Shown one piece after another: positions 4,536 through 21,346 of a stretch of DNA of 24,000 nt (positions within the stretch are counted from its first letter, which is position 1; each line of letters begins with the position of its first letter). Source of the DNA: Dongia sp. GTDB lineage: Bacteria > Pseudomonadota > Alphaproteobacteria > Dongiales > Dongiaceae. A program made the translations under genes and the position numbers. The DNA lies in contig NZ_JAYRKD010000017.1 of NCBI RefSeq assembly GCF_041905885.1, positions 1 through 24,000 on the forward strand, read 5' to 3'. A model generated the notes under the pieces. It searched no databases, had not been told where the DNA came from, and saw only the letters and a list, made by a program, of their open reading frames with translations.

Positions 4536-5423
4536 ATGAGCATTGCACGCGCTAGAGAACTCAGAGCAAGTTCGACAGATGCAGAGCGGCTTCTGTGGCT
4601 CAAGCTGCGCGATCGACGCCTGGTGGGCGCGAAGTTTCGGCGTCAGGTTGAGTTCCCGCCGTACACCGTCGACTTCTGCTGCTTCGAAGCGAAGTTGATC
4701 GTTGAAGTTGACGGCAGTCAGCATGCTGAACGCGCGAAGCAAGATGCAGTTCGCACGCGTCGTCTGGAAGGTGACGGCTTCTCGGTCATCCGCTTCTGGA
4801 ACAATGACGTACTGACCAATACCAATGGCGTCCTGGAAGCGATCTTGACCGAGTTGAATCAGCGTGGCGCCCCGTTCGTAACGCCGCTGCCTCGTACTAG
4901 ACCCGAGCCGGAACGTGCGAAGGCGCAGCCCCGCCGTCGTGTTATGGCTGCAAGAAGCAGCGTCCCCTCTCCCCTCGTGGGAGAGGGACAGGGTGAGGGG
5001 GCGCCAGCCAGCGGAACCTCAACCCAGCCGGCGCATGTCCATCCGATCCGTGTCTATTTCGAGGATACGGATGCGGGCGGGATGGTTTACTACGCCAACT
5101 ACCTGAAATTCGCCGAGCGCGCCCGGACCGAGATGCTGCGCGCGGGCGGGATCAACCACGCCGAGATGGTGGCGCAAGACGGGTTGATGCTGGTGGTGCG
5201 ACGCTGCACCGCCGAGTATCACCGTTCGGCACGCCTCGACGATGAACTCGCGGTCGAGACGCGGGTTTCTGCCCTGGCTGGGGCATCAATTCTGCTTGAT
5301 CAGGTCGTCCGTCGCGGGAGCGAGGTCCTGGTCGAGATCACGGTCACGATTGCCTGCGTGACGAAGGAAGGGCGAGCGACCCGCCTGCCGGAACGGCTGC
5401 GTGCTGCTATCGCCATAAACTGA
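4536..5423 (+). CDS. ybgC: single open frame: N-terminal DUF559 (Vsr-like PD-(D/E)xK endonuclease domain) continuing without a stop into the Tol-Pal-associated acyl-CoA thioesterase YbgC
   Basis: aa 1-110 carry DUF559 signatures: RARELRASSTDAERLLWLKLRDRRLVGAKFRRQ, YTVDFCCFEAKLIVEVDGSQH, GFSVIRFWNNDV. aa ~165-295 are the 4HBT/YbgC part (IRVYFEDTDAGGMVYYANYLKFAERARTEMLR). The ~55-aa linker is partly encoded by a hairpin repeat. Internal candidate ybgC starts are ATG 4944 and GTG 4977. The stop at 5423 is secure; the true start is uncertain. Confidence 0.7.
   Translation: MSIARARELRASSTDAERLLWLKLRDRRLVGAKFRRQVEFPPYTVDFCCFEAKLIVEVDGSQHAERAKQDAVRTRRLEGDGFSVIRFWNNDVLTNTNGVLEAILTELNQRGAPFVTPLPRTRPEPERAKAQPRRRVMAARSSVPSPLVGEGQGEGAPASGTSTQPAHVHPIRVYFEDTDAGGMVYYANYLKFAERARTEMLRAGGINHAEMVAQDGLMLVVRRCTAEYHRSARLDDELAVETRVSALAGASILLDQVVRRGSEVLVEITVTIACVTKEGRATRLPERLRAAIAIN
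4963..5005 (+). repeat. short copy of the same hairpin repeat family, inside the DUF559-ybgC linker
   Basis: CCTCTCCC-ctcgt-GGGAGAGG (4966-4986) followed by GACAGGGTGAGGGGGCGCC. The core is identical to 4292-4312 and 4356-4368 and translates as SPLVGEGQGEG. Confidence 0.8.
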
Positions 5424-11673: not shown

Positions 11674-12987
11674 GTGCTGGCTGCCGCGGCCAAGCCCGCA
11701 TTCTCGCCGGAGCGTTTCGCCGGATTGATGGCGCGGCTCGGCCCGTTCGAGCGCACGCCGCATCTCGCGGTCGGCGTCTCCGGTGGCCCCGACAGTATGG
11801 CCTTGACCTTGCTGCTCGCCGAATGGGCGGCCAGCCGCAACGGCCGGATCGCGGCGCTGACCGTCGATCACCGGCTGCGGCCGGAATCCGCGGCGGAAGC
11901 GCAGGCGGTCGGGCGCTGGCTGAAGCCGCTGCCGCACGTCACCCACCACATCCTCCCCTGGACCGATCCGAAGCCCGCGGCCGGCATCCAGGCCGCGGCG
12001 CGCGAAGCCCGCTATCGCCTGATGGCCGACTTCTGCCGCGACCAGGCGATCCTGCATCTTGGCGTCGCGCACCATCGCGACGACCAGCACGAGACCCATC
12101 GCCTGCGCGCCGGGCACGGCAGCGGCGCGATCGGCCTGGCGGGGATGAGCGCGGTCCGTGCGCTGGACGATGTGCGGCTGCTCCGGCCCTTGCTCGGCGT
12201 CGCCAAGGCCGAGCTGATCGCGCTGCTCGAGGCGCGCGGCCAGGCCTGGATCTCGGATCCCAGCAACGACAACCCCGGCTTCGAGCGGGTGCGCCTGCGC
12301 GGCTCGGCGACGCCGGAAACCGCAGCGCGCGATGCCGCCGCGCTGCACCGCCTGGGTCTGGAACGGCGGCGCCTCGAGGAAGAGGCCGCACGCCGGCTCG
12401 CCGCCGGCCTGGTGATCCAGGACGCCGGCTGGGCCGAGCTCGATCTCAATGACCTCGGCCCGGATGATCTCAGCGAGGACGCCGCATCCAGCCTCGCCTT
12501 CGGCGGCCTGCTGCAGAGCATCGGCGGCAACGACTATCCGGTCGCGGAGGATCGGCGGCGGGAAGCCCTGGCGCGGCTCCGGGCCGAAGCGGGTGCCGAT
12601 TTCACGTTGGGTGGCTGTCATCTGCGCCGGCAGGCCGGGAAGCTGCAGGTCTTCCGCGACTGGGGCGTCATTCGCGACCGCCTGGTCCCGGTCCCGGGAA
12701 CTTCCGCGCTCTGGGATGGTCGTTTCATGGTCACGGTTGCGCCCGGCCTGCCGCCCCATTCGGACTTCACGATCGGGCGATTGGGCGAGCATGGCCTGCG
12801 CCTGCTGGGCGGCCTCGGGCATCCCCAGGCGGCCTCCGGGGTCCCGGAGCCGGCCCGGAAGGCACTGCCGGCCCTCTGGGATGAGGATCGGTTGATCGCG
12901 GTGCCCCACCTCGGCTTTGGAGCCGGCCTCGAGGCCCGGTTCAGGCCGGCCCGGGGCGCGGCATCTGGTGGCTTTACAGTTGCTTAA
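11674..12987 (+). CDS. tilS: tRNA(Ile)-lysidine synthetase TilS
   Basis: PP-loop motif LAVGVSGGPDSMAL, ...LTVDHRLRPESAAEA, ...AAREARYRLM, LGVAHHRDDQHET. GTG start at 11674. Confidence 0.9.
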   Translation: MLAAAAKPAFSPERFAGLMARLGPFERTPHLAVGVSGGPDSMALTLLLAEWAASRNGRIAALTVDHRLRPESAAEAQAVGRWLKPLPHVTHHILPWTDPKPAAGIQAAAREARYRLMADFCRDQAILHLGVAHHRDDQHETHRLRAGHGSGAIGLAGMSAVRALDDVRLLRPLLGVAKAELIALLEARGQAWISDPSNDNPGFERVRLRGSATPETAARDAAALHRLGLERRRLEEEAARRLAAGLVIQDAGWAELDLNDLGPDDLSEDAASSLAFGGLLQSIGGNDYPVAEDRRREALARLRAEAGADFTLGGCHLRRQAGKLQVFRDWGVIRDRLVPVPGTSALWDGRFMVTVAPGLPPHSDFTIGRLGEHGLRLLGGLGHPQAASGVPEPARKALPALWDEDRLIAVPHLGFGAGLEARFRPARGAASGGFTVA

Positions 12988-16203: not shown

Positions 16204-17346
16204 ATGAAACGAAGCTTCTGGATGGTCTTGAGTTTCGTGATGCTGGGCCTGATCGTCCAGGTGCACCCGGTAGCCGCACAAGATCCGCCCAACGGGTTCT
16301 CGAAGGCGTTCTTCGAAGATATCGAGACGCCCTCTGAGATGACCGGCTTGTGGAATCGCGCTTTCGATCGGTGCGAAGCAGCCGCTCAGCAGCCGGTGGA
16401 AGATTGCATACTCGATCGTGCCGCGAAAATCATCGGCCACGGGAGTTTGACGGGTCCTCGCTGTGCGCACGTGTCTTATGCCATTGCCAGGCACTACTGC
16501 ATCGTGATCGGATCAATCGCCGCGGACCTTATCGTCAAGTTTGAGCTCGATAGCGCTGACGGCTTCATCGAGGCGCAGGGCGATAGGTTGGAATTGGATC
16601 CCGCCGGCACGCAGGTGTGGTCATACTTGAACCGGAAGTGCCCAGCGCCCGCAGCTCCTGCCGGTTGTCACTTCGATGAGGTGTCACGCCGTTTAGATCC
16701 CGGCGCCAAGGATATTGCCTCGTGCAAGTCCATTGTCGAAGCGCATGGTCAGGTTGACTGCCTGATTGCGCACTGGTTCGCCGCACAAGTGCGCTCTGCC
16801 GAGACGGCGGAGAAAGTTGGCATTTCCGGCGACTTCTTCTTTCATCGAGGCGTGAAGCCGGCGATCAACGATCTTGCGCGGCATGCTCAGGCCAATTGCG
16901 CCCGGGCAGGGGCCGCCAGTGGCTCGGATTGCCTCGTCTCCAGCGTTGCCGCAGTTCTGCCTTACGGCAACGAGATGATGCCGTACTGCAGAGACATCGC
17001 AGACGACGTCGATCGCTATCTTTGTGTCTTGACCGGTGCCCTGGCGACCGACCTTTACGCAAGGATCGGCGTTGGACCTGCCGGCACCTTCTTGACGCAG
17101 TATGGGAGCGACCGGGAGCGAACGATTGACCGGGCAGATGCGGAAGTGGCGGTTTTCCTGGCAGAGAAATGTCGGAAGACCACCGACGGCACCCGATGCG
17201 GCCCCCAGGAACTGGCGCGCCGGCTTGAAGTCGCGCCCGACGCCCTGAAACAGTGCGATTTTTTGACCGAGGATCGGCAAAGCATAAACTGTCTCATGGC
17301 CAGCCATGTGGTCCAAACACTCCAGGCGGCCGACGGCCAGCTATGA
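16204..17346 (+). CDS. secreted cysteine-rich repeat protein of unknown family (16 Cys, four C-x8/10-C-x18-C-x11-C modules)
   Basis: GAGGT lies 5 nt upstream of the ATG. Signal peptide MKRSFWMVLSFVMLGLIVQVHPVAA|QD. Two ~170-aa halves have identical Cys spacing. More A/T-ending codons by eye than the flanking genes. No family recognised. Confidence 0.8.
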   Translation: MKRSFWMVLSFVMLGLIVQVHPVAAQDPPNGFSKAFFEDIETPSEMTGLWNRAFDRCEAAAQQPVEDCILDRAAKIIGHGSLTGPRCAHVSYAIARHYCIVIGSIAADLIVKFELDSADGFIEAQGDRLELDPAGTQVWSYLNRKCPAPAAPAGCHFDEVSRRLDPGAKDIASCKSIVEAHGQVDCLIAHWFAAQVRSAETAEKVGISGDFFFHRGVKPAINDLARHAQANCARAGAASGSDCLVSSVAAVLPYGNEMMPYCRDIADDVDRYLCVLTGALATDLYARIGVGPAGTFLTQYGSDRERTIDRADAEVAVFLAEKCRKTTDGTRCGPQELARRLEVAPDALKQCDFLTEDRQSINCLMASHVVQTLQAADGQL

Positions 17347-17482: not shown

Positions 17483-18835
17483 ATGACGCGCAAACTCTTC
17501 GGCACCGATGGTGTCCGCGGCCTCGCCAACAGCGAGCCGATCACCGCCGAGACCGCCCTCAAGCTGGCCTTGGTGGCCGGCGCCCATTTCACCCGCGGCG
17601 ACCACCGCCACCGGGTGATCATCGGCAAGGACACCCGCCTCTCCGGCTACATGCTGGAGACGGCGATGACCTCCGGTTTTCTCTCGGCGGGAATGGACGT
17701 CATCCTGCTCGGCCCAATGCCGACCCCGGCCGTGGGCATGCTGACCCGCTCCATGCGCGCCGACCTCGGCGTCATGATCTCGGCCTCGCACAACCCTTAT
17801 GAGGACAACGGCATCAAGCTGTTCGGCCCGGACGGGTTCAAGCTCTCCGACGAGATCGAAGCGGCGATCGAGGCGCGTCTTGCCTCGGGCGATCTCGCCA
17901 AGCTGCTGGCTCCTTCCGCCGAGCTCGGCCGCGCCAAGCGCGTGGATGACCCCGGCCGCTACATCGAGTTCGTGAAGTCGAGCTTTCCGAAGGGTCTCAG
18001 CCTCGCCGGCTTGAAGGTCGTTATCGATTGCGCCAACGGCGCCGCCTACAAGGTCGCCCCGACCGTGCTCTGGGAGCTGGGCGCCGAGGTGATCCCGATC
18101 GGCGTCGAGCCCAACGGCACCAACATCAACCGCGACTGCGGCGCCATGCATCCCGATCGCCTCAAGGCCTTGGTGCGCGAGCGCGGCGCCGATCTCGGCA
18201 TTGCCCTCGACGGCGACGCCGACCGGGTCATAGTGGTCGATGAGCGCGGCCATGTGGTCGATGGCGACCAGCTGATGGGTGTCATCGCCCGGTCCTGGGC
18301 GGTGGCTGGCCGGCTCAAGGCCGACTGCGTCACCGCGACGGTCATGTCCAACCTCGGCCTGGAGCGATTCCTCCAGGCCCAGCGCATCGCCTTGAAGCGC
18401 ACGCCCGTCGGCGACCGCTACGTGGTCGAGGAGATGCGCCGCAACGGCGGCAACCTCGGCGGCGAGCAGTCCGGCCATATCATCCTCACCGACTTCGCCA
18501 CCACCGGCGACGGGCTGATGGCGGCGCTGCAGGTCCTGGCGGTCCAGGTCCAGGCCGACAAGCCGTCGAGCGAGACCCTCCGGGTCTTCGCGCCGCTGCC
18601 GCAGCTCCTGAAGAACGTGCGCTACCGCGCCGGCGCCGGCCTGCCGCTGGAGCAGGCCGCGGTGAAGGCCGCGATTGAGGCCGGCGAGGCGGAGCTCATC
18701 GGCAAGGGCCGGCTGCTGATCCGGAAGTCCGGCACCGAGCCGCTGATCCGCGTCATGGCCGAAGGCGAGGACGAGGAACTGGTGGCAAGGGTCGTCGCCG
18801 ACATCGTGAAGGCGGTCGAAGCCGCCGCCGCATGA
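17483..18835 (+). CDS. glmM: phosphoglucosamine mutase GlmM
   Basis: [13 protein letters not shown], active-site loop [17 protein letters not shown], metal site [30 protein letters not shown]. Confidence 0.97.
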
Positions 18836-19257
18836 GCTTGCTCCGGCGGCTGGTCGTCCTCGCCTTGCTTCTGGCCAGCCCGGCGATCGCCGCCGACCCC
18901 CAGCCGCAGCTTCTCCAAGCCGGCTTCGCGGAAGAACGCCCCTGGCCCGAGGCGGCCCGCCGCGGCGGCTATGACCAGGCAGCGCTCAGCCTCACCAGCC
19001 CCGGCCTCGCCTTCTGGGTCGACGTCGCCCATCTCCAGCAGGGCGACCATCTGGTGCTCAGCCTGAAGAGCCCAGACCGCGGTATCATGGCGACGCGCGA
19101 CATTCCTTTCAGTCGACCGACTGATCGCTTCTTCGCCTTCGCCGGTGCCAACCACCCGCAGCGCGGCTGGCAGTCCGGCCCCTATGTCGGGCGGGTTCAA
19201 GTCATCCGCGGCGACCAGATTCTCATCGAAGCGACACGCCAAATCGCCTTGCCATAG
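18832..19257 (+). CDS. hypothetical small secreted protein
   Basis: ATG overlaps the glmM stop (ATGA). Signal peptide [20 protein letters not shown]|AD. G/C-rich third positions. No family recognised. Confidence 0.6.
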
Positions 19258-19297
19258 ATCAATCGGTGAATAGAGTCCGCGGGCAGGGAGTGCCGCC

Positions 19298-19567
19298 ATG
19301 CCTTCGGTCCAGTTCACGTCGCATCTCAGGAAGGTCGCACCGACCGGCAGCATGACGGTCGGCGGCGCGACCCTGCGCCGGGCGCTCGACGAAGTCTTCG
19401 CGCTGCATCCCAAAGTGAAGTCCTACGTGCTCGACGACCAGGAACGTCTGCGCAAGCATGTCGTCATCTTCGTCGACGGCGAACGTATTTCCGGCGGCAG
19501 CGACTTGATGCGGCCGGTCAGTCCCTCTGCCCAAATCTATGTTCTTCAAGCATTGTCGGGAGGATGA
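19298..19567 (+). CDS. MoaD/ThiS-family ubiquitin-like beta-grasp protein with a free C-terminal Gly-Gly
   Basis: 89 aa ending ...QIYVLQALSGG-stop. Size and pattern (V.F...L......V.G.TL..AL...., VIFVDGE) are typical of ThiS/MoaD sulfur carriers. GGGAG lies upstream of the ATG. Confidence 0.8.
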   Translation: MPSVQFTSHLRKVAPTGSMTVGGATLRRALDEVFALHPKVKSYVLDDQERLRKHVVIFVDGERISGGSDLMRPVSPSAQIYVLQALSGG

Positions 19568-19568
19568 G

Positions 19569-20639
19569 ATGGCGTCGCGTTTGCTGGTCGGCAGCCGCAA
19601 GGGACTCTTCGTCCTGGAACCGAAAGGCAGCGAATGGAAGATCGCGCAGCAGGCCTTCATCGGCCAGCCGGTCTCCCAGGTGCTCCACGACCCGCGCGAC
19701 GGCAGCCTCTACGTCGCGCTCAACCTCGGCCATTTCGGCGCCAAGTTGCACCGCTCCGATGACCAGGGTACCACCTGGACCGAGGTCAGCGCGCCGGCCT
19801 TCCCCAAGCAAGAGGGGAAGGAAGATGCACCTAGCGTCGCCATGATCTGGGCATTGGAAGCGGCGGGCCTGGACATGCCCGGGGTGATCTGGGCCGGCAC
19901 CATGCCGGCGGGCGTCTTCCAGTCCAAGGACAAGGGTGTCACCTGGACCCAGAACACTGCTTTCGACGCGATCCCCGGCAAGGCTGAGTGGTTCGGCGGC
20001 GGCAACGATGCGCCCGCTTTGCATTCGATCTCGATCCACCCGAAGGACAGCCGCAAGATGGTGGTCGGCATCTCCTGCGGCGGCGCCTGGGTCACCGAGG
20101 ATGCGGGACTCACCTGGGGCAATGGCTGCAAGGGCATGTGGGCGGCCTATATGCCGCCCGATCAGAAACAGAACCCGGCCGCCCAGGACCCGCACCGGAT
20201 CGTCCGGTGCCGCGACCATCCGGAGACGCTCTGGACCCAGCACCACAATGCCCAGTTCCGGTCCACCAATGGCGCCGCCGAGTGGAGCACGATCTCCGAG
20301 ACCTTCGGCTTCGCCGTCGCCGCCCATCCGCGGAATGCCGAGACCGCCTGGTTCGTCCCCGCGCAGAAGGACGAGTTCCGCATCCCCGAGAACGGCGACT
20401 TCTGTGTCCTCAAGACCGAGGACGGCGGCAGGAGCTTCCGCCGCATCACCGCCGGCCTGCCGCCGAAACCCTGCTACGACCTCATCTACCGCCACGCCCT
20501 CGACGTCGATGAAGAGGGCCGCGCGCTCGCCTTCGGCTCGACCACGGGAAACCTTTGGGCAAGCGGGGATAGCGGCGAAAGCTGGCGCGTCGTCTCAAAC
20601 CATCTGCCGCCGATCTACGTTCTTAAGTTCGCGCTTTAG
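19569..20639 (+). CDS. cytoplasmic BNR/Asp-box repeat beta-propeller protein (sialidase-like / Ycf48-like fold), function unknown
   Basis: ATG lies 1 nt after the upstream TGA, with SD GGAGG at 19559-19563. Asp-boxes SDDQGTTW, SKDKGVTW, TEDAGLTW, TEDGGRSF and SGDSGESW, plus a degenerate STNGAAEW. No signal peptide. The ORF-track start at 19539 would overlap the Ubl gene and is less likely. Confidence 0.85.
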   Translation: MASRLLVGSRKGLFVLEPKGSEWKIAQQAFIGQPVSQVLHDPRDGSLYVALNLGHFGAKLHRSDDQGTTWTEVSAPAFPKQEGKEDAPSVAMIWALEAAGLDMPGVIWAGTMPAGVFQSKDKGVTWTQNTAFDAIPGKAEWFGGGNDAPALHSISIHPKDSRKMVVGISCGGAWVTEDAGLTWGNGCKGMWAAYMPPDQKQNPAAQDPHRIVRCRDHPETLWTQHHNAQFRSTNGAAEWSTISETFGFAVAAHPRNAETAWFVPAQKDEFRIPENGDFCVLKTEDGGRSFRRITAGLPPKPCYDLIYRHALDVDEEGRALAFGSTTGNLWASGDSGESWRVVSNHLPPIYVLKFAL

Positions 20640-20831: not shown

Positions 20832-21230
20832 AGGGACGTGTTTGCTATCCAGGCGCTCTGACCATCGCGCGCGCCGGCGGCGGCTCTATGGTCCCGAGCA
20901 AATGAATCGCGCCGCCGAGATCGCGAGCCTGCAGCGCTTGGTCTCGGTATCGCGGAGATCAGCCGGAGCCGCGCCGCGGGGTTGGAGTTGGCGCTTGCCG
21001 TCCAGCAGGACACGCTCCAATCCCGCAACCGCTATCTGGCGAAGACGTCGGCAAAATTAGAACTCTGCGCCGCGGCCGGCCCAGTCCGGCGCTGGGCCGG
21101 CGAGCGCTTGGAGTTCCGTGACCTACCGGCTCGCACCTACATCACGGGTCGCTTGTCTTGGAACAAAAAGTGAACTATACCCGTCGCTTCGCTGCAGACA
21201 CTCGCGTGTGTAAGTGAGATCTAGCCTCTG

Positions 21231-21310
21231 AACCCCGACGGGACCCCGACAGAATCAGCGGACCCCGACGGGACCCCGACGTCAACCAACCCCCACGGGA
21301 CCCCCACGGA
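21231..21310. repeat. degenerate ~10-bp periodic repeat (GACCCCGACGG)n downstream of azlD; G-rich on the azlD sense strand
   Basis: ACCCCGACGGGACCCCGAC occurs at 21232-21250 and again at 21262-21280. The variant CCCCCACGGGACCCCCACGG lies at 21290-21309. Confidence 0.8.
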
Positions 21311-21346
21311 ACCCGTCGACCCGGACGGAGACCGGCGGGACTGCTT

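Follow-up and report, generated by a model that had tools for sequence, protein, structure and literature searches.

A Conserved Bacterial Gene Pair of a Ubiquitin-Like Protein with a Free Gly-Gly End and a Seven-Bladed Asp-Box Propeller, and Its Possible Role in Sulfur Transfer

Introduction

In the protein pairs MoaD-MoaE, ThiS-ThiG, CysO-CysM, CysO-BexX and TtuB-TtuA, the carrier, a small protein of beta-grasp fold whose Gly-Gly end is free, is encoded beside the protein that uses it. The activating enzyme (E1) of such a carrier is often shared and encoded elsewhere, and one E1 can act on several carriers, as is the case for MoeZ and for TtuC. The gene pair considered here has the same layout. 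It lies in a stretch of 24,000 nucleotides (nt) from Dongia sp. (contig NZ_JAYRKD010000017.1, positions 1 to 24,000), in what follows called the window, and consists of the gene of a ubiquitin-like protein (Ubl) of the MoaD/ThiS/SAMP/CysO class of beta-grasp proteins (89 amino acids (aa); positions 19298-19567 of the forward strand, stop codon included) and, next to it on the same strand, the gene of a seven-bladed Asp-box (BNR) beta-propeller of the 3B7F family (356 aa; 19569-20639, stop codon included). What sets this pair apart from the known carrier pairs is the partner: the Asp-box beta-propeller is a fold without a carrier-partner role in the literature and libraries searched.

The modifier proteins SAMP1 and Urm1 are also close to the Ubl. 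For them, too, a MoeB- or Uba4-type E1 suffices, and SAMP1 is the best NCBIfam and structural match, but the Ubl family is bacterial and has no associated JAMM peptidase. The pair is described neither in Pfam, NCBIfam release 20, PADLOC, Rfam and the Protein Data Bank (PDB) nor in the full-text literature searched or the beta-grasp surveys (PMC1779556, PMC1949818). A preliminary description of the window saw in it a compact Ubl-plus-propeller module with no characterized example, and the comparisons of gene order, fold and family reported below support this view. The superfamily of the Ubl and the logic of a carrier with a neighboring user are already known; new, in the literature and libraries searched, are the fold of the partner, the Ubl subfamily and the module.

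Results

Conservation of the Pair

When one genome per GTDB species was scanned, a close relative of the propeller was found in at least 593 loci, and the best 80 were analyzed. These come from Alpha-, Beta- and Gammaproteobacteria, Planctomycetota, Acidobacteriota, Verrucomicrobiota and Chloroflexota, the closest genomes being those of Dongia (Rhodospirillales) with 87-94% identity. A second, independent scan, led by a divergent Bacteroidota member, covered metagenome contigs. In 78 of the 80 genome loci the Ubl gene directly precedes the propeller gene on the same strand; when the one exception that has no upstream DNA is set aside, the count is 78 of 79. Among the metagenome loci it is present in 71 of the 74 whose contig includes all or part of the Ubl region, and it is missing in only 2 of the 72 that have enough upstream DNA. 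When genome and metagenome loci with usable upstream DNA are taken together, the Ubl lies directly upstream of the propeller in 149 of 153. The two genes are thus syntenic in other genomes, on which the idea of a two-gene module in the preliminary description depended.

The C-terminal end of the Ubl is conserved to the same degree. In the window the protein ends ...YVLQALSGG; the codons of the tail Q-A-L-S-G-G, which is the signature of the family, occupy positions 19547-19564, the two last ones (codons 88 and 89, 19559-19564) are both GGA, and the stop codon TGA (19565-19567) follows directly, so that the free, unprocessed Gly-Gly terminus first read from this sequence is borne out. All Ubls from the genome loci (78/78) and from the metagenome loci (71/71) have QALSGG or a near variant of it. 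The stop codon comes directly after Gly-Gly in 72 of the 78 genome-locus Ubls and in all 71 metagenome-locus Ubls, the latter with tails of the form Q[AS]L[ST]GG, while the remaining six have 1-7 extra residues past Gly-Gly, or assembly errors. Extensions of 1-10 residues (GGDSFE, GGCGAPNGTTT, GGASGARR, GGV, GGS) occur in loci L081 (9665-9946), L094 (7403-7699), L040, L061, L063 and L071. In L081, a PqqD-domain gene and a gene for a 255-aa protein of no known family are directly upstream of the pair.

The gap between the two genes has a median of 18.5 nt, and in the window it is a single nucleotide, since the ATG of the propeller at 19569 is one nt past the Ubl stop codon. The Shine-Dalgarno sequence GGAGG of the propeller gene (19559-19563) is here contained in the two Gly codons, 5 nt before the ATG. 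The choice of the first of these Gly codons varies with the gap: GGA, which creates GGAGG, is used in 45 of 71 loci with a gap of at most 12 nt, versus 13 of 86 loci with a longer gap (Fisher p = 3.6e-10). From this follows that the Gly-Gly codons double as ribosome-binding site in the family at large, and the translational coupling proposed for the window has comparative support. Furthermore, the pairwise distances of the Ubls correlate with those of the propellers (r = 0.78, a value reached in 0 of 1000 permutations), and the two proteins co-evolve. The free QALSGG end, the adjacency of the genes and the embedded Shine-Dalgarno sequence recur in more than 150 independent loci and are not due to chance.

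There is no third conserved gene: when the ORFs (open reading frames) of the flanks were clustered all against all, in two sets of 80 loci, only the pair and shadow ORFs came out, and the flanking genes are wholly different between lineages. A regular expression for the JAMM/MPN motif, applied to the flanks of 169 loci, gave two hits, both in out-of-frame or low-complexity ORFs.

A sister pair with reversed order, propeller first, is found in Micrococcaceae (Arthrobacter, Pseudarthrobacter). Its Ubl ends QSVAGG, and the Ubl gene overlaps the propeller gene by 8 nt or sits about 10-100 nt 3' of it. In Arthrobacter globiformis (L179, 1-2417) and in Pseudarthrobacter (L180, 1-2735) a copper operon of the csoR-copZ-copA type (Trns_repr_metal, HMA, P-type ATPase) is found some 3-4 kb away from this reversed pair, which may be a coincidence and is mentioned in view of the copper-sulfur-molybdenum context described below.

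The Ubiquitin-Like Protein

The best NCBIfam match of the Ubl is SAMP1 (NF041918; E = 2.3e-11, 44.1 bits, cutoff 60), followed by moaD_arch (TIGR01687; E = 8e-6, 26.2 bits, cutoff 49.5), and the Pfam family ThiS (PF02597) matches the window protein with E = 0.0045 and 17.9 bits at a gathering threshold of 22.5. Many homologues with 50-65% identity have a precomputed match to PF02597. An AlphaFold2 (AF2) model, with a mean predicted local distance difference test (pLDDT) of 83.5, is by Foldseek closest to SAMP1 (3po0, the best match), the MoaD-related 1v8c from T. thermophilus and CysO, at template modeling (TM) scores of 0.79-0.85; the CysO chains are those of the CysO-CysM and BexX-CysO complexes. 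When a profile of the Ubl family is run against the PDB, CysO and SAMP1 come first, and MoaD-related chains are found too. The protein is thus predicted to have the beta-grasp fold of the ThiS/MoaD type that had been suggested from its size and hydrophobic pattern.

Three sequence features mark the Ubls of the pair: FT.HL near the N-terminus, YVLDDQxRLRKHV in the middle of the protein, and the QALSGG end. The protein is by these models of the sulfur-carrier/Ubl class but makes up a separate subfamily, because it has its own tail and YVLDDQxRLRKHV block and scores under the cutoffs for MoaD, SAMP1 and ThiS. In particular, it is not a SAMP1 orthologue, because its score stays below the cutoff of that model. 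Nor is it the MoaD of molybdopterin synthase, because a canonical MoaD, distinct from the Ubl, is encoded in the same gene cluster in loci L101 (ending ...PPVSGG) and L117 (...PPFSGG). The possibility, raised at the outset, that the small protein could be the only ordinary MoaD of its organism does not apply to these two loci.

At 50% identity, the members of the family (E<=1e-10) fall into 616 clusters. Of the top 150 representatives nearly all are stand-alone proteins that end with the Ubl, and no Ubl-propeller fusion is found among these 150 or among the 120 listed homologues of the propeller. Longer Ubl entries were considered as informative fusions, but those inspected look like mis-called starts or read-through.

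The Propeller and Its Conserved Site

The AF2 model of the propeller (pLDDT 91.9) has seven blades. Its only close solved relative is 3B7F (Reut_B4987 of Ralstonia eutropha JMP134, a structural-genomics entry titled 'putative glycosyl hydrolase with BNR repeats'), which is matched by phmmer (E 4e-52 over residues 5-354), by profile (E 2.6e-78) and by Foldseek (E 6e-33, TM 0.89), and the function of which is listed as 'not known' in a survey of Asp-box propellers. The propeller is not found in any characterized enzyme family; membership in one with a known, unrelated role would have overturned the earlier view of it. 3B7F is likewise a single seven-bladed propeller with five Asp-boxes and belongs to the same protein family, but to another subfamily with about 30-35% identity.

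The five Asp-boxes and the degenerate sixth, known from the preliminary description, are confirmed by translation: SDDQGTTW (aa 63-70, blade II, 19755-19778; between strands three and four of the blade in the model), SKDKGVTW (aa 119-126, blade III, 19923-19946), TEDAGLTW (aa 176-183, blade IV, 20094-20117), the degenerate STNGAAEW (aa 232-239, blade V, 20262-20285), TEDGGRSF (aa 283-290, blade VI, 20415-20438) and SGDSGESW (aa 332-339, blade VII, 20562-20585). The N-terminus, MASRLLVGSRKGLF, has no hydrophobic signal-like stretch and forms a beta-strand of the closing blade in the model, in agreement with the earlier statement that the protein lacks a signal peptide. The gene ends with TAG at 20637-20639. 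Gene callers sometimes pick an in-frame upstream ATG at 19539, which gives 366 aa (P0001/P0002), but the conservation across the family begins at the Met at 19569.

More distant structural neighbors in the Foldseek search are enzymes of glycoside hydrolase family 74 (GH74), sortilin, Ycf48 and DAIP. A GH74 xyloglucanase is rejected, since it needs two tandem seven-bladed propellers in chains of about 700-790 aa (TM 0.3-0.37 normalized on the target), and here there is a single propeller of 356 aa. The Vps10 domain of sortilin, Ycf48/HCF136 and DAIP have the Asp-box propeller architecture in common with the present protein (Foldseek E 1e-10 to 1e-9), but the identity is 12-15%, sortilin has ten blades, and none of them has a Ubl partner. 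Ycf48/HCF136 is further excluded by E = 0.47 for PF14870 and 19.7 bits against a cutoff of 326 for NF010237. Sortilin-Vps10 (PF15902, 48.3 bits) is the sole Pfam match above cutoff, but the ten-bladed sortilin domain was rejected, since of the 446 model positions the best stretch takes in only 3 to 114, the match consists of three stretches with the similarity of repeat blades, and the model is seven-bladed. All NCBIfam matches of the propeller are under cutoff. Matches in haloarchaea are distant paralogues with 22-26% identity, and no Ubl accompanies the one whose surroundings were inspected (Haladaptatus, L092).

The sialidase family BNR_2 (PF13088) reaches 20.2 bits at a cutoff of 31.4, solved sialidases are matched with E of about 0.35, and the sialidases tabulated in PMC2716378 are six-bladed where the model has seven blades. 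The public label 'exo-alpha-sialidase' (GH33) is therefore without support, because the sialidase and Ycf48 models are under threshold and the Sortilin-Vps10 match reflects repeat blades only. The label has nevertheless traveled. For PA1355/PA1356, the literature search gave a single match, a transcriptome paper in which the sialidase label of PA1356 is repeated as promoting colonization, adhesion and biofilm formation, without data. From the gene order next to pmpM, we take PA1355/PA1356 to be this pair in P. aeruginosa.

The residues K11, H55, K59, S169, D207, H209, H226, R271, R308 and H309 are invariant in the 153 Ubl-linked propellers (153/153), and H152, Q224, D268 and D304 are nearly so. 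Two of the segments involved stand out. One is the His-rich loop Q224-H225-H226-N227 (20238-20249; Q224 in 152/153, H226 in 153/153, H225 in 127/153), which falls within the B-C loop of blade V according to the DSSP topology of the model. The other is F270-R271-I272-P273 (20376-20387; R271 in 153/153, P273 in 79/79 Ubl-linked propellers), which we take to resemble the 'FRIP' motif of sialidases. In the RIP motif of sialidases, the Arg binds the substrate carboxylate.

The same positions were compared in the paralogues Streptomyces L087 and Rhodobacter L091 (no Ubl), Nonomuraea L090 and Arthrobacter L178 (Ubl downstream), and 3B7F. K11, H55, H152, S169, H209, Q224, H226, D268, R271 and R308 are kept, apart from a Trp at position 55 in Rhodobacter, while K59, D304 and H309 are replaced in all of them and D207 in all but 3B7F. 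With the window propeller 3B7F itself shares K11, H55, H152, S169, D207, H209, Q224, H226, R271 and R308, and it is without the clade-specific K59, D304, H309, S324 and T326. Two observations on these paralogues may be added. The Streptomyces protein (L087, 4986-6074), with no Ubl gene within 5 kb, itself ends in Gly-Gly (...VRAATIGG), and the gene of the Ubl-less Rhodobacter paralogue (L091, 1583-5110) is divergent from egtB-egtD for the biosynthesis of ergothioneine, a sulfur compound.

By the strand order of the model, the conserved residues are in B-C or D-A loops or at the starts of the innermost strands. In the standard propeller topology this would place them around the central channel, on the side that faces away from the Asp-boxes. 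With its five to six His, two Arg and two Lys, the His/Asp/Arg/Lys set looks like an active site that binds a metal, a carboxylate, or both.

Neighborhoods with E1, Molybdenum Cofactor and CO Dehydrogenase Genes

Pfam and NCBIfam scans of the long ORFs found no E1, JAMM, MoaE, ThiG or CysM in the 24-kb window, as the preliminary description had claimed. Its broader wording, that there is no partner nearby, holds for the window and for most loci, but not for a minority of genomes, in which an E1 gene, genes for the molybdenum cofactor (Moco), XdhC or CO dehydrogenase (CODH) genes flank the pair. To arrive at this, 169 loci with 1.74 Mb of flanks were pooled and searched for Moco, xanthine dehydrogenase (XDH)-family and E1 genes, and the matches were verified by Pfam. 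In 10 of the 169 loci, mostly those of a Bacteroidota-like clade, the pair has such a gene at a distance of no more than about 1.2 kb; the types are XdhC, MoaA, MoaC-MoaB, MoaE, MoeA, MogA and cysteine desulfurase-SufU, or the series coxM-coxS-coxL-coxG-AAA-coxE-XdhC+YHS.

Genes for an E1 with ThiF and rhodanese domains lie 218-1450 nt from the pair in three loci, L101 and L165 (verified by Pfam) and L117 (by BLAST). The ThiF probe gave no match in the first set of loci and three in the second, two of them confirmed by Pfam. Two conclusions from the neighborhoods stand more firmly than the link to Moco and CODH, namely that the Ubl occurs beside MoeZ-type E1 genes and that it is not the MoaD of molybdopterin synthase.

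To exemplify, consider the order of genes in the linked loci. In Chondrinema litorale it is MoeA, cysteine desulfurase-SufU-MoaE, a divergent XdhC, Ubl and propeller. In L101 it is MoaA, cysteine desulfurase, SufU, the canonical MoaD, XdhC, Ubl, propeller and the ThiF+rhodanese E1, and in L117 it is Ubl, propeller, MoaC-MoaB, MoaE, E1, the canonical MoaD and MoeA. Shorter arrangements are Ubl, propeller and ThiF+rhodanese E1 in L165 and a MogA/MoaB gene adjoining the pair in L133. In L098, L099 and L107 the pair is directly upstream of coxM-coxS-coxL, and in L107 these are followed by CoxG, an AAA+ ATPase (CoxD-like), CoxE and XdhC+YHS, with a MobA-like transferase and MoaA upstream. The CoxL proteins of the cox-linked loci carry the sequence AYRCSFR. 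This is the signature of form I CO dehydrogenase, and its Cys binds the copper of the [CuSMoO2] center.

When the propellers are grouped by single linkage at 55%, clade I has 129 members, that of the window included, and the Bacteroidota-like clade II has 28. Clade II accounts for seven linked loci among about 16 with usable flanks. By chance, one would expect about 2 loci with a Moco-related immediate neighbor, by a rough estimate that assumes such genes to be about 0.5% of the genome, and about 8 are observed, which represent no fewer than four or five independent arrangements. The Moco/CODH lead is real for clade II and weak for the clade of the window.

Some further genes were seen near the pair. 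In the clade II metagenome loci L116 (355-2089), L110 and L124, genes for a thioredoxin-reductase-like flavoprotein and for the pterin enzyme FolB (dihydroneopterin aldolase) precede the pair. The related loci L107 (7301-7699) and L113 (7329-7706) have, directly upstream of the Ubl, an ORF of 125-132 aa with no Pfam match and with a hydrophobic N-terminal stretch, possibly a membrane protein; after the pair, L107 runs into the cox genes and the contig of L113 ends past the propeller.

Other Features of the Window

The remaining ORFs of the window are, by Pfam and NCBIfam, yebC, ruvCAB, DUF559+ybgC, tolQ, tolR, tolB, pal, cpoB, tilS, ftsH, folP, glmM, azlCD and an EhuR-like MocR regulator, that is, alphaproteobacterial housekeeping genes with the convergent azlCD and the regulator downstream of the pair. 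A hidden partner of TtuA type was considered and rejected, as the sole PP-loop ATPase of the window (11674-12987) is TilS, above the NCBIfam cutoff. An anti-phage defense system was likewise rejected, with no PADLOC match, no JAMM motif in the flanks and housekeeping genes as neighbors, and so was a riboswitch or other upstream RNA element, for which Rfam had nothing at its gathering threshold in the window and five other loci.

Just 5' of the Ubl gene there is a candidate sigma-70-like promoter, TTGCCA-16 nt-TAGAGT (19249-19276, forward strand), a match to consensus of which one site is found versus 0.3 expected in shuffled sequence. It is possible as well that the Ubl gene is read through from glmM, the intergenic gap being 40 nt after the preceding ORF, which ends at 19257. 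A Shine-Dalgarno-like AGGGAG (19285-19290, forward strand) is 7 nt 5' of the Ubl start codon. The preceding ORF (18832-19257, 141 aa) has a signal-peptide-like N-terminus, overlaps the stop codon of glmM (ATGA) and leaves a gap of 40 nt to the Ubl gene; no family is matched by it, and it lies outside the conserved module.

A non-coding stretch of 700 bp separates the propeller gene from the 3' end of azlD and contains a cluster of short direct repeats (G/A)ACCCC(G/C)ACGG at 21231-21328. In this cluster GGGACCCCGAC has 4 copies at no more than one mismatch, versus 1.1 expected, and a 25-nt imperfect hairpin (21060-21116) is close by. At the head of the tol-pal cluster, a single ORF (4536-5423) has an N-terminal DUF559 (endonuclease-like) and a C-terminal YbgC-type 4HBT thioesterase domain, and may be a true fusion or two genes that were read as one. 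Between folP and glmM, a Cys-rich protein of 380 aa (16204-17346) has a signal-peptide-like N-terminus and an apparent internal duplication, and it has no match in Pfam or NCBIfam.

Discussion

Proposed Mechanism

We propose, with about even confidence, that the pair is one functional unit, in which a Ubl of the sulfur-carrier type works with a dedicated, cytoplasmic seven-bladed propeller as its partner. The two genes, seen side by side with the Shine-Dalgarno sequence in the Gly-Gly codons, would be co-transcribed and translationally coupled, and this would favor equal amounts of both proteins. An E1 of ThiF/MoeB/MoeZ type, encoded elsewhere, would adenylate the carboxylate of the Gly-Gly end and convert it to a thiocarboxylate. 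This step is suggested because of the fold, the invariant free Gly-Gly tail and the ThiF+rhodanese E1 genes beside the pair in three other loci. The Ubl would then dock on that side of the propeller which faces away from the Asp-boxes, and its QALSGG tail would enter a central pocket lined by the invariant or nearly invariant K11, H55, K59, H152, S169, D207, H209, H226, D268, R271, D304, R308 and H309; sortilin with bound neurotensin and Ycf48 with a bound D1 peptide are models for such docking. Finally, and this is the least secure step, sulfur would be passed at the propeller to a substrate, for which the best lead is the Moco of xanthine-oxidase-family enzymes (Mo=S or Mo-S-Cu), because in the Bacteroidota-like clade the pair lies between Moco biosynthesis or XdhC genes and coxMSL.

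A more specific version, which we regard as tentative and on the unlikely side, is that the pair delivers sulfur, or copper and sulfur, to molybdenum hydroxylases, after the thiocarboxylated Ubl has been desulfurized at a metal site with His ligands in the propeller's hub. Sulfide would then go to the Mo=S group of xanthine-oxidase-family enzymes and to the bridging sulfur of the [CuSMoO2] cluster of CODH. In TtuA, a metal cluster is reported to desulfurize the thiocarboxylate of TtuB (PMC7138817), so that there is precedent for a metal center that strips sulfur from the thiocarboxylate of a Ubl. For the [CuSMoO2] cluster of CODH, the sulfur source is stated to be unknown (PMC4240915).

XdhC with NifS4 (for XDH), CoxD/E/F/G (for form I CODH) and the eukaryotic Moco sulfurase serve the insertion of Mo-bound sulfur, and some pairs lie among such genes. 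The maturation of molybdenum hydroxylases that has been characterized uses a cysteine-desulfurase persulfide, and neither a Ubl nor a propeller (PMC2997495), and what links it to the pair is gene neighborhood in a minority of loci.

Several results weigh against the carrier proposal or parts of it. In XDH, Moco bound to XdhC is sulfurated by the persulfide of the cysteine desulfurase NifS4, without a Ubl (PMC2997495), and that such a route is known counts against a general need for another donor. CODH maturation in O. carboxidovorans involves, as far as published, coxDEFG alone. In clade I, to which the window belongs, an E1, Moco or XDH gene adjoins the pair in only three loci (L133, L165 and L172), and in the 80 genome loci Moco genes are, by a rough estimate, about as frequent as expected by chance. 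The Ubls with residues past Gly-Gly would need trimming, yet there is no JAMM-type peptidase nearby, and in Nonomuraea gerenzanensis the MoaD-like ORF directly 3' of the propeller (L090, 5069-5380) ends ...YVLPALA, without Gly-Gly; these two observations agree poorly with an obligatory E1 reaction. The top-face location of the conserved residues and their presumed binding of a metal are read from topology. Finally, the conservation of Cys170, in the SCGG loop, is no more than 86% among the Ubl-linked propellers, which leaves no ground for an obligatory persulfide or thioester there; a catalytic Cys was dropped for this reason.

Alternative Explanations

The pair could also be a stable, non-covalent heterodimer without any E1 chemistry, in which the Ubl serves a propeller enzyme as its structural, regulatory or chaperone subunit, and in which the QALSGG tail is only a plug or ligand in the central pocket, for instance with its carboxylate on R271/R308 or on a metal. 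We consider this unlikely, but there is a fair amount that it accounts for. Tight translational coupling suits a complex that needs its two subunits in equal amounts, the pair stands by itself, as more than 95% of loci lack an E1 in the neighborhood, and related propellers do bind peptide tails, as sortilin does with neurotensin and Ycf48 with the D1 peptide. The bound part of these peptides is the C-terminal end. The Nonomuraea partner ORF (...VLPALA) without Gly-Gly, and the several members with residues past Gly-Gly, are also easier to accommodate when the tail is not a substrate of E1. On the other hand, what is conserved is a near-absolute terminal Gly-Gly and not just any small tail, and this is the hallmark of carriers that are adenylated by an E1, genes for which, with ThiF and rhodanese domains, are beside the pair in three independent loci. 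The lack of fusions among the 150 Ubl representatives and the 120 listed propeller homologues points in the same direction, as one would expect to see some if the C-terminus need not stay free, although a tail that serves as plug would resist fusion too. Taken together, the near-universal terminal Gly-Gly and the E1 neighbors fit the carrier model better than the plug model.

A minimal tagging system, like urmylation or SAMPylation, would use the same first step as the proposed carrier: the Ubl, activated by a housekeeping E1, would be attached by its Gly-Gly end to lysines of target proteins, and the propeller would be its main target, an adaptor or a reader. In sequence and fold the Ubl is as near to SAMP1, a proven modifier, as to pure sulfur carriers. 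Urm1, once thiocarboxylated, is reported to conjugate without E2 or E3 (PMC9574740), and because of this, tagging with an E1 only is feasible. The propeller, moreover, has the invariant lysines K11 and K59, and its relatives sortilin, Ycf48 and DAIP bind peptides, some of them having been solved with a peptide bound. But no JAMM/MPN motif of a deconjugase is found in the flanks of the 169 loci, the clustering of flank ORFs shows no E2-like or other recurring partner, the known contexts point to cofactor sulfur chemistry and not to proteolysis or stress, and the invariant His/Asp/Arg set is more like a catalytic or metal site than like a passive target. Tagging appears quite improbable to us.

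The most trivial explanation, that an ordinary MoaD/ThiS happens to be followed by an unrelated sialidase-like glycoside hydrolase, agrees with the public labels ('MoaD/ThiS family protein', 'molybdopterin synthase sulfur carrier subunit', 'exo-alpha-sialidase', 'glycosyl hydrolase') and with a MoaE without adjoining MoaD, 1.1 kb away, in Chondrinema, but it is largely refuted and hardly credible any longer, given that the adjacency is kept across phyla between co-evolving proteins, that L101 and L117 have a canonical MoaD as well, with a PP[VF]SGG tail instead of QALSGG, that the Ubl is under the MoaD, SAMP1 and ThiS cutoffs and the propeller under that for sialidases, and that a single propeller is unlike the two-propeller GH74. 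The weight that is left beyond the carrier, the heterodimer, tagging and the ordinary MoaD is kept for some other explanation, not listed here.

Significance

At least about 600 bacterial species have the pair, and some of them, namely Pseudomonas aeruginosa, Ralstonia solanacearum, Burkholderia and Cupriavidus, are open to experiment; the label 'exo-alpha-sialidase' deserves correction even if the Moco lead should fail. Sulfur-carrier Ubls are regarded as the evolutionary root of ubiquitin signaling, and, to our knowledge, every new partner enzyme of a carrier has so far led to new sulfur biochemistry, in molybdopterin, thiamin, cysteine, thio-tRNA and thiosugars. Here, the carrier is coupled to a fold that is not known in a partner role. 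Atmospheric CO oxidation by the CO dehydrogenase class of enzymes is considered ecologically important, and if the proposed link is true, the genomic lead makes the origin of the Mo-bound sulfur in CO dehydrogenase and related enzymes directly testable. What has been annotated as 'MoaD' and 'sialidase' is thus a widespread pair in genetically tractable bacteria, with a testable link to the maturation of molybdoenzymes.

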